Origin: a bacterium
GTDB taxonomy: Bacteria; Patescibacteriota; Minisyncoccia; Phycocordibacterales; Phycocordibacteraceae
Reading direction: 5' to 3'
NCBI GenBank assembly: GCA_021813965.1
Contig: JAKAJB010000002.1
Coordinates: 1-32,376 of the forward strand
DNA: 32,376 nucleotides
The notes under the pieces were generated by a model. The model searched no databases and was not told where the DNA came from. It worked only from the letters and a program-made list of their open reading frames with translations. Position 1 is the first letter of the stretch; every line of letters begins with the position of its first letter. The translations under genes were made by a program, and so were the position numbers. Shown piece after piece: positions 1,264 through 27,718 of the stretch.

Positions 1264-1286
1264 GTCTTTTGTCGTGTATAGTTTAT

Positions 1287-1375
1287 ATGTGCCTGTGGGG
1301 CGTCAGCCCTATTTCGGCTAATACATAAGCCGAAGGCAGGCATATCAAAACCACCGACCTCGCGTCGGTGTTTTT
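1287..1375 (+). ncRNA. Candidate small structured RNA (three-way junction plus terminator)
   Basis: TATAGT at 1277-1282; 10-bp outer stem 1287-1296/1336-1345 enclosing 5-bp and 8-bp hairpins; several G-U pairs on the + strand; terminator at 1352-1375. Confidence 0.5.
1347..1375. terminator. Bidirectional intrinsic terminator
   Basis: AAAAC-CACCGAC-CTCGC-GTCGGTG-TTTTT, just beyond the stop of the minus-strand gene at 1380. Confidence 0.8.
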
Positions 1376-1379
1376 GCTT

Positions 1380-1867
1380 TTAGTCATCCTCCGGGTTGCC
1401 CTTCATCGTGCTGTACAGTTTCATGTCGCGATACTTGTTCGTAGTCCATGCTGGCACGACGCTCCAGAAATGAAGCTGCCCGTTGTCGCCGATCTTCCGC
1501 AAGATCACTTTTATCTTGCGCCCGTCGATGATGGCGATGATGCCCCAATATTTCACCGGCTTACTCTTCCGTACTTTCTTCTTGAAGCTTTTCACTTCGA
1601 ATTCCTTGAGCGTCACTTCGTATTCCTGATATGTCGTAGAAAGCTAGAAAGCTCCGTGAGCCTGATCGCTATCGGCAGAAGCTTGAAGCGCAGTATCTGC
1701 GACGAGCGTTCACGCTCGCTTCGCGGACCCTTGAAAATCACGTGATTGAACCCTTCTGCGGTGAAATGTACGAGCTCGCCAAGCGCCGGGGAGTGGACCG
1801 GTCGCGTGCCGATATAAAACTTCTGCGCATCTTCGCGGAGCTTCTCGTAGTTGGAAACATCTTCCAT
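1380..1867 (-). pseudogene. Frameshifted ~159-aa protein, probable BECR-fold (PBECR/LPD3-like) nuclease; cargo of micro-island 2
   Basis: ORFs 1613-1867 and 1380-1616 join in frame (…LTELSTTYQEYEVTLKEF…) when one copy of TAGAAAGC (1637-1652) is removed. The VHFTAEGFNHVIFK…IKVILRK…HFWSVVP pattern suggests a BECR fold (inference). Confidence 0.75.
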
Positions 1868-1908
1868 ATCGAAAAAGTGTACACCCATCCTTGCGCTACC
1901 ATATACGG

Positions 1909-27645: not shown

Positions 27646-27718
27646 GCGCCCGTAGCTCAGTCGGTAGAGCAGCTCGCTTTTAACGAGAAGGTCGCAGGAT
27701 CGAAGCCTGCCGGGCGCA
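27646..27718 (+). tRNA. tRNA-Lys(TTT)
   Basis: Acceptor GCGCCCG/CGGGCGC, D-arm GCTC/GAGC, anticodon loop CTTTTAA, T-arm GCAGG-ATCGAAG-CCTGC. CCA is not encoded. Confidence 0.93.

Follow-up and report, generated by a model that had tools for sequence, protein, structure and literature searches.

We find that a 32,376-nucleotide (nt) stretch of the Patescibacteriota contig JAKAJB010000002.1, here called the window, carries a compact two-part unit in which a small RNA folding into a three-way junction (positions 1287-1345, + strand) converges with a protein gene on the opposite strand (1380-1867, minus strand). The RNA is a real, conserved and strand-specific structure, and it is linked one to one with the protein family encoded beside it. 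In the reading that we favour, to which we assign a probability of roughly one half on the basis of comparative analysis and structural modelling, the pair would form a toxin-antitoxin unit with an RNA antitoxin. The initial annotation of this DNA had proposed a unit made of a protein gene and a convergent structured RNA, and homologous loci bear out this two-part architecture, as they carry a covarying junction downstream of the gene and on the other strand. The genome holding the window (labelled G000) measures 565 kb in 60 contigs, is 93.5% complete and contains the RNA in a single copy.

The junction consists of an outer stem P1 (1287-1296 paired with 1336-1345) that encloses two hairpins, P2 (1297-1301/1306-1310, GGGGC-GTCA-GCCCT at 1297-1310) and P3 (1312-1319/1328-1335, TTTCGGCT-AATACATA-AGCCGAAG at 1312-1335). 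The initial annotation had read the outer stem, both hairpins, a TATAGT hexamer ahead of them and a bidirectional terminator behind them, and all of these elements are in place. Folding the + strand with RNAfold returned exactly this three-way junction at -46.1 kcal/mol (z = -6.6, 0/200 shuffles as good), whereas the minus strand folded more weakly (-41.3 kcal/mol, z = -4.9). When the C-terminal piece of the protein was searched against 61 related genomes, 10 homologous loci in 7 other genomes were retrieved, and each of the 10 has a three-way junction on the opposite strand immediately after the stop codon. The RNAalifold consensus of an 11-sequence alignment comprised 18 pairs, and compensatory changes were seen in 8. 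When a covariance model built from this consensus (R1) was run over 40 sources, it found the RNA at 35, so that the conserved downstream structure expected by the initial annotation is present in homologues. In the 35-sequence alignment, 98.4% of 617 cells are occupied by standard pairs, and two-sided, compensatory changes occur in 17 of the 18 pairs. None of 500 covariation shuffles reached any observed measure, and sliding the partners by 1-3 columns as a control lowered pairing to 23-52%. The 35-sequence alignment was fitted to the model and is therefore biased toward the structure; the first 10 loci, in turn, were recognised by eye before any model was made. Covariation is densest at the junction-proximal pairs, and the loops vary in both length and sequence. 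Counting pair types across this alignment gave 74 G·U against 2 A·C, which identifies the strand opposite to the protein gene as the folded molecule and upholds the earlier choice of the + strand from its G-U pairs. Rfam 15 contains no gathering-level match to the RNA, the sole such match in the whole window being a tRNA at 27646-27718, and a permissive search of positions 1200-1450 at E <= 10 gave three chance-level matches of 14-16 bits against thresholds of 40-67. Ribozyme and tRNA-like readings of the RNA were considered and found to be without Rfam support. Within the terms and library covered, a full-text literature search returned no description of the RNA or of the module.

The association between RNA and protein holds from whichever side it is approached. 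Among loci collected by the protein profile alone in a sample of 401 genomes of the phylum, the RNA is present at 24 of 29. Five sources were missed by the model. In three of them (L038, L040 and L041), a -10 box and a three-way junction, both diverged, can be made out by eye, with L040 alone of these giving a weak model match at the junction position (9.6 bits), and a fourth (L026) is a truncated gene. In the fifth (L042, G397:C19), the domain is part of an open frame of more than 760 amino acids (aa; 1783 aa by profile search) with a Hint/intein-like motif downstream, and no junction RNA was detected there. If the three junctions seen by eye alone are counted, all 31 intact stand-alone genes that were examined have a junction. 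Starting from the RNA, a genome-wide scan of the 61 relatives gave 12 matches in 9 genomes, 11 beside the protein gene and one orphan, and a scan of 151 genomes of the phylum gave 16 matches in 15 genomes, 14 of them beside a protein match. The hairpin is hence no unrelated repeat scattered through genomes, an outcome that the initial annotation had named as speaking against its proposal: it is unique here and occurs almost only beside the protein gene elsewhere. The orphan RNA in G028 (L050 1501-1583) adjoins a Doc/Phd-type pair. A further orphan site, in G104 (L070 1501-1640), comprises a tandem of two different junctions with a single terminator behind them and adjoins a Fic-domain gene; no protein match was found at this site. 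Fic/Doc-family genes adjoin both orphan sites and also the module at locus L015. At the 35 RNA-bearing loci, an open reading frame (ORF) spanning the family profile is present in 28, and the ORF is truncated or interrupted in the other 7. The distribution of the module is patchy, with intact homologues of about 160 aa in 31 of the 401 genomes, and several divergent copies per genome do occur, G043 having three. Searching phage and plasmid collections with tblastn gave no match, and a search of viral contigs with a single protein, that of G015, revealed no relative.

Both partners are accompanied by candidate transcription signals. The TATAGT hexamer at 1277-1282 (+ strand) is the candidate -10 box of the small-RNA gene, and its register is kept across homologous loci: of 35 loci, 31 have TAnnnT aligned at this position and 33 have it at a distance of 4-10 nt ahead of P1, and 18 show the TG at -15/-14 of an extended -10 element. 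Downstream, a bidirectional intrinsic terminator at 1352-1370, called on both strands and flanked by an A-tract and a T-tract, is common to the RNA and the protein gene. Of 32 loci, 29 show a hairpin or T-run past the junction on the RNA strand; most T-runs come after a strong A-tract/hairpin/U-tract terminator, and in six loci a U-run follows P1 directly. These signals point to an RNA of about 60-95 nt transcribed from its own extended -10 promoter. For the protein gene, a candidate -10 box (TACACT, 1876-1881, minus strand) lies 8 nt upstream of the ATG. Among 32 homologous genes, TAnnnT occurs 4-12 nt upstream of the start in 13, as compared to 15% at random positions, and a Shine-Dalgarno-like motif in none. 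Judged from these upstream sequences, the protein is probably translated from a leaderless mRNA.

The protein gene of the window (start ATG at 1865-1867, stop at 1380-1382) is broken and reads in two frames, as pieces 1613-1867 and 1380-1643. Its frame is shifted by an 8-bp tandem duplication at 1637-1653 (TAGAAAGC x2.1, perfect copies), whereas the intact homologues of this protein are 159 aa long. The N-terminal piece matched 174 cluster representatives at E <= 1e-3, and the intact orthologue of G015 matched 635 clusters at E <= 1e-5. The homologues, named 'hypothetical protein' and coming from Patescibacteria, Parcubacteria, Kaiserbacteria, Azambacteria and Paceibacterota, are about 140-185 aa in length and basic (median isoelectric point 9.7). 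Their origin marks the host of the window as a member of the Candidate Phyla Radiation. In an alignment of 39 members, G39, H42 and R52 are invariant and Y18, P27, Q57, Q78, G127, F131, S133 and P136 nearly so. In many members, the C-terminus is a conserved acidic tail, G-[ND]-[PL]-E-[ED]-D, placed after a low-confidence linker (for example in L003 1285-1761, residues 140-159), and a subgroup of about 130 aa lacks this tail. The only recurring Pfam signal is LPD3 (PF18798), seen in 18 of the 39 members with a best E of 4.4e-5. The N-terminal piece of the window scores 14.6 bits (E 0.038) against a gathering cut-off of 27 bits, and one homologue (P0166) has a precomputed PF18798 tag. On sequence grounds, we regard the protein as a distant LPD3 relative and not a clear member of that family. 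Iyer et al. 2017 (PMC5512222) list LPD3 among the domains of unknown function in polyvalent proteins and, for proteins of Helicobacter phages, mention it together with PBECR and RelA-SpoT domains. Among the 39 members, no match to the RelE, ParE or PBECR families and none to the ToxN model was found in Pfam at E <= 0.1, none matched NCBIfam or PHROGs, and a sequence-profile search of the PDB gave no match at E <= 10.

The AlphaFold model (predicted local distance difference test, pLDDT, 87.9; predicted template modelling score, pTM, 0.79) starts with a helix, a hairpin and two helices and continues with four long antiparallel strands. Aligned with VIA-align against 48,161 chains, it gave two matches at Z >= 5, and the top rows are mostly CdiA-CT, RelE, RegB, BrnT, MqsR, ParE and a colicin-type ribonuclease (RNase), at Z 3.4-5.1. 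The best PDB fold matches are 6cp9 (Z 5.1), 7vd7 (5.0), 7m5f (4.9), 9g12 (4.7), and 2hx6, 2khe and 3u97 (4.3 each), and no ToxN/AbiQ-type fold is found among the best 50 structural matches. Among predicted viral structures, LPD3 proteins lead with a probability of 0.96-1.0 and a TM score of 0.39-0.48. The automatic ESM Atlas cluster name 'PBECR2' is a lead only. Since the fold matches are weak, assignment to the RelE/CdiA-CT-like fold (BECR, for Barnase/EndoU/ColicinE5-D/RelE) is plausible but weak.

In the window, the module occupies a small island of its own. Two copies of an 82-nt direct repeat (1182-1263 and 1890-1971, + strand, 82% identity, spacing 708) bound a 708-bp unit that holds the small RNA, the protein gene and nothing else, which confirms the statement of the initial annotation that the two are the sole contents of this micro-island. 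That no protein antitoxin is visible was likewise borne out by ORF inspection, which found no such ORF inside repeat-bounded units. The right border (1890-1971) is the functional promoter and 5' coding end of comEC, a gene identified by its Pfam Competence and DUF4131 domains, and the left border (1182-1263), located in the same repeat search, is a decayed second copy of that promoter together with the first ~21 codons of comEC. Upstream of the protein gene, the comEC start region is mirrored by a 17-nt inverted repeat (1874-1890/1907-1923, 82% complementary), which suggests back-to-back divergent promoters of the leaderless type. The host genes RNase H and comEC appear leaderless themselves, having a -10-like hexamer 6-7 nt before the ATG and no Shine-Dalgarno motif (703-717, 1188-1203, 1900-1911). 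Another micro-island, at about 184-698, is flanked by a 69-nt direct repeat (115-183/699-767, 96% identity) made up of the RNase H promoter and the 5' end of that gene. It contains one ORF (269-652, 127 aa) plus a terminator, and this ORF has no Pfam match and no homologue among 60 relatives.

Comparison across genomes indicates where the module begins and ends and how long it has been in place. Its contexts are unrelated, being RNase H-comEC in the window, greA-lysK in G015 and recQ-radC in G457, and similarity between the window and G015 stops at the gene ATG on one side and at the RNA -10 box on the other. In four cases, the module is flanked by long, directly repeated copies of host promoter sequence: the window (82 nt; stretch 1182-1971), L015 (68 and 64 nt; 1251-2287), L022 (111 nt; 1365-2299) and L057 (66 nt; 2022-2787). 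The flanking duplications comprise 66-140 nt of host promoter or intergenic sequence at a spacing of about 700-920 bp, and in one repeat survey a flanking direct repeat was absent in 12 of 15 loci. Where present, the repeats look like very long target duplications or like the product of Campbell-type integration by homology. A second genome, G460 (L057), has the same island at the same RNase H-comEC site, with the same repeat arrangement and an intact 159-aa gene. In G024 (L058), RNase H directly adjoins comEC and the site is empty, and one metagenome contig of X1, which joins 1128 to 1936 via 32 other letters, is consistent with an island-free relative. Between G000 and G460, identity is highest in the RNA stretch that begins with the -10 box and ends with P1 (89.9%), with the junction itself nearly identical, followed by the C-terminal part of the protein gene (82.5%), the RNase H gene (77.4%), the N-terminal part of the protein gene (75.3%), the first 600 nt of comEC (72.7%) and the upstream repeat remnant (57.9%). 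These identities indicate that the insertion is old, that the RNA is its most constrained part and that the frameshift in G000 is recent. At the frameshift site, metagenome contigs from three runs (X1, X3 and X4) show the frameshifted form, with no indel listed relative to the window, and they differ from it at 0-4 positions over 1316-1965/1971. These contigs are at least 85% alike to the window and perhaps derive from the assembly's own source samples, and hence do not provide independent support. Both X1 and X3 have also lost 1 nt of the junction linker at 1312 and carry a cluster of synonymous-looking differences at 1467-1509 (in a stretch listed as 1432-1547), so that the same community holds another, related copy or strain of the module.

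According to the mechanism that we favour, the basic ~160-aa LPD3-related protein would be a toxic RNase of the RelE/CdiA-CT (BECR) type. The small RNA, made convergently from its own promoter as a three-way junction followed by the terminator it has in common with the protein gene, would be the cognate antidote, its conserved junction core binding the toxin. In G000, the protein gene has been inactivated by the 8-bp duplication, with the RNA gene left intact. Judging from the sequences compared, the antidote most likely acts by binding the protein, following a type III-like logic, rather than by pairing with the mRNA. Three features suggest that the shape of the RNA is read by a protein, namely the covariation at junction-proximal pairs, the basic nature of the partner, and the existence of orphan RNAs and of 'widowed' RNAs beside broken genes; on these grounds we prefer the antidote reading, with the RNA binding a toxic RNase. 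More tentatively, and at odds that we put below even, the module may represent a new toxin-antitoxin or immunity class of the Candidate Phyla Radiation (CPR)/Patescibacteria, in which a three-way-junction RNA with its own promoter would directly bind and neutralise a BECR-fold RNase. The junction, with its acceptor-like stem and two hairpins, could serve as a pseudo-substrate mimicking the natural structured RNA target of the toxin.

Several observations weigh against this interpretation. Likeness to the BECR fold is weak, with Z at most 5.1, a range that can reflect a common arrangement. Foldseek, which the initial annotation had coupled with Rfam for classifying the pair, retrieved nothing from the PDB at E <= 0.001 and placed NTF2-like proteins in its top rows. 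The BECR-like fold proposed in the initial annotation thus stands as far as the topology and the best PDB matches go (Z 3.4-5.1), and falls short in the Foldseek/PDB comparison and in sequence, where the sub-threshold LPD3 signal is the only link. No toxin family of Pfam, NCBIfam or PHROGs matches any of the 39 members, and PADLOC returned weak PDC-M04B matches for 3 of them. Moreover, a simple sigma-70 -35/-10 scan of 1100-2000 called no promoter, so the promoter claim for the RNA rests on comparative conservation. That the RNA outlives broken genes could simply be due to a mutational target about eight-fold smaller than that of the gene, and any obligate pairing of an RNA with a protein outside the toxin-antitoxin world would be just as strictly linked. 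Finally, the island at the window site appears, from its sequence, to be old and vertically inherited, the module having diverged about as much as its flanks, and such inheritance is compatible with a domesticated, non-selfish function.

One of the two main rivals, which we consider unlikely, is a ribonucleoprotein that is no toxin system at all, in which the RNA would be a substrate, cofactor or guide, for instance of a defence effector or in RNA processing, and not an inhibitor. One-to-one linkage with a basic protein fits such a particle, as do the long retention of the island at the window site in two lineages and the place of LPD3 among domains of unknown function (PMC5512222). For an RNA that works only together with the protein, however, orphan copies and copies beside broken genes are harder to account for, and the patchy distribution, the several divergent copies per genome and the frequent gene decay are typical of selfish modules of the toxin-antitoxin kind. 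We see the other main rival, control of the type I kind, as quite unlikely. Here, the convergent RNA would pair with the 3' end of the toxin mRNA and trigger its decay, the pairing taking place at the shared terminator or, where a separate terminator is lacking, at the 3' untranslated region (UTR) across the junction, which would itself have no role beyond stabilising the RNA or initiating a kissing contact. The convergent geometry and the common bidirectional terminator agree with this arrangement, and in the six loci with a U-run directly after a junction that lies by the stop codon, an mRNA that reads on would be fully complementary to the RNA; nuclease toxins under type I control are also reported, as with RalR/RalA. 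Yet the transcripts could overlap nowhere but at the shared terminator or in the 3' UTR, and most loci have a strong terminator between the stop codon and the junction that limits the sense/antisense overlap to about 30 nt or less. When the junction was compared with the mRNA 5' end and with the last 60 nt of the coding sequence, no cognate-specific complementarity was seen (rank fractions 0.48 and 0.49, with 0.5 expected at random), which speaks against trans-antisense pairing to either region. Antisense pairing also needs no strong strand-specific covariation at the junction core, and the protein is basic and 159 aa long rather than a small hydrophobic peptide.

We judge it very improbable that the junction acts at the DNA level, as folded single-stranded DNA serving as a recombination or integration site like an integron attC or the ends of IS200/IS605. 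Such an element would account for the small islands, four of which have long direct repeats (the window, L015, L022 and L057), and for the position of the junction at one edge of the conserved block. Transcription is indicated instead by a conserved -10 box with constant spacing to the junction and by the terminator or U-run that this strand also carries, the unit is without a recombinase, and the repeats are duplicated target sequence and not element ends, besides being absent from 12 of the 15 loci surveyed; the attC-like and IS200/IS605-like readings were rejected on the promoter and terminator signals and the lack of a recombinase. We give hardly any credence to the idea that the junction is a mere elaborate terminator or 3' UTR of the protein gene. 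Its place directly downstream of the stop codon is what one would expect of a 3' UTR, but on the gene strand the 74 G·U pairs become A·C mismatches as opposed to 2 the other way, a separate simple terminator usually stands between the stop codon and the junction, a promoter box is conserved on the opposite strand, and orphan junctions occur without any gene.

CPR bacteria have tiny genomes and are mostly uncultured, and to our knowledge almost no small RNAs have been characterised in them. An RNA with textbook covariation, promoter and terminator signals of its own and an obligate protein partner is therefore of interest, as its function is directly testable in E. coli. If the RNA does neutralise the protein, RNA antitoxins would reach beyond ToxN-type toxins and beyond antisense control, and the module would provide the first RNA antidote for a toxin of the BECR fold. 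LPD3 of phage polyvalent proteins would gain a biochemical role as an RNA-targeting toxin domain, and the result would offer a first functional handle on a domain that is widespread in polyvalent proteins of phages and plasmids. Independently, the islands of about 700-900 bp within 66-140-nt duplications of host promoters may show how reduced genomes acquire genes.

Set against known systems, the protein resembles RelE/ParE, BrnT, MqsR and CdiA-CT in its predicted helices followed by a four-stranded antiparallel sheet and in its best PDB matches, and differs from them in belonging to none of their sequence families and in its low Z scores. Moreover, the known BECR relatives are paired with protein antitoxins or immunity proteins, whereas the adjacent partner in the module is an RNA. 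To LPD3 (PF18798), the protein is related through the sole recurring Pfam signal, the top viral fold matches and one domain within a giant ORF (L042), and it is set apart by scores below the gathering cut-off and by the RNA partner. LPD3 is described from polyvalent proteins of phages and conjugative elements (PMC5512222), whereas the module proteins are solo and chromosomal in CPR bacteria.

As for the RNA, two classes of toxin-antitoxin systems come close. Type III systems (ToxIN, CptIN, TenpIN) comprise an endoribonuclease toxin that is neutralised by a structured RNA binding to it, and their antitoxin RNA consists of tandem repeats upstream of the toxin gene, with which it is co-transcribed. 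The module resembles them in the proposed pairing of an RNase with a structured RNA antidote and in being small, patchy and island-borne. However, the type III anatomy to which the initial annotation had likened it does not apply: the RNA is no tandem repeat and lies neither upstream of the gene nor in the same direction, being a single three-way junction that is downstream, convergent and equipped with a promoter of its own. Apart from the 8-bp lesion, no tandem repeats were found in 1100-2000, and the protein has no ToxN match in Pfam (0/39), its fold matches being RelE/CdiA-CT-like. At the G104 orphan site, two junctions stand in tandem. In the type I systems par/Fst-RNAII (pAD1), TxpA/RatA and BsrG/SR4 (B. 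subtilis), the toxin is a membrane peptide and its gene converges with the RNA gene on a common bidirectional terminator. The module has the same layout, with a proposed toxin gene and a small RNA gene that converge on one such terminator, and departs from it in that its protein is a basic alpha/beta protein of 159 aa and not a hydrophobic membrane peptide of less than 60 aa, and in that the conserved part of its RNA lies outside the overlap and shows no cognate-specific complementarity to the mRNA. In defining points of its anatomy, the pair thus departs from type I as well as from type III, and it is best filed as a new RNA family joined to an uncharacterised protein family, a variant of the RNA-antitoxin systems.

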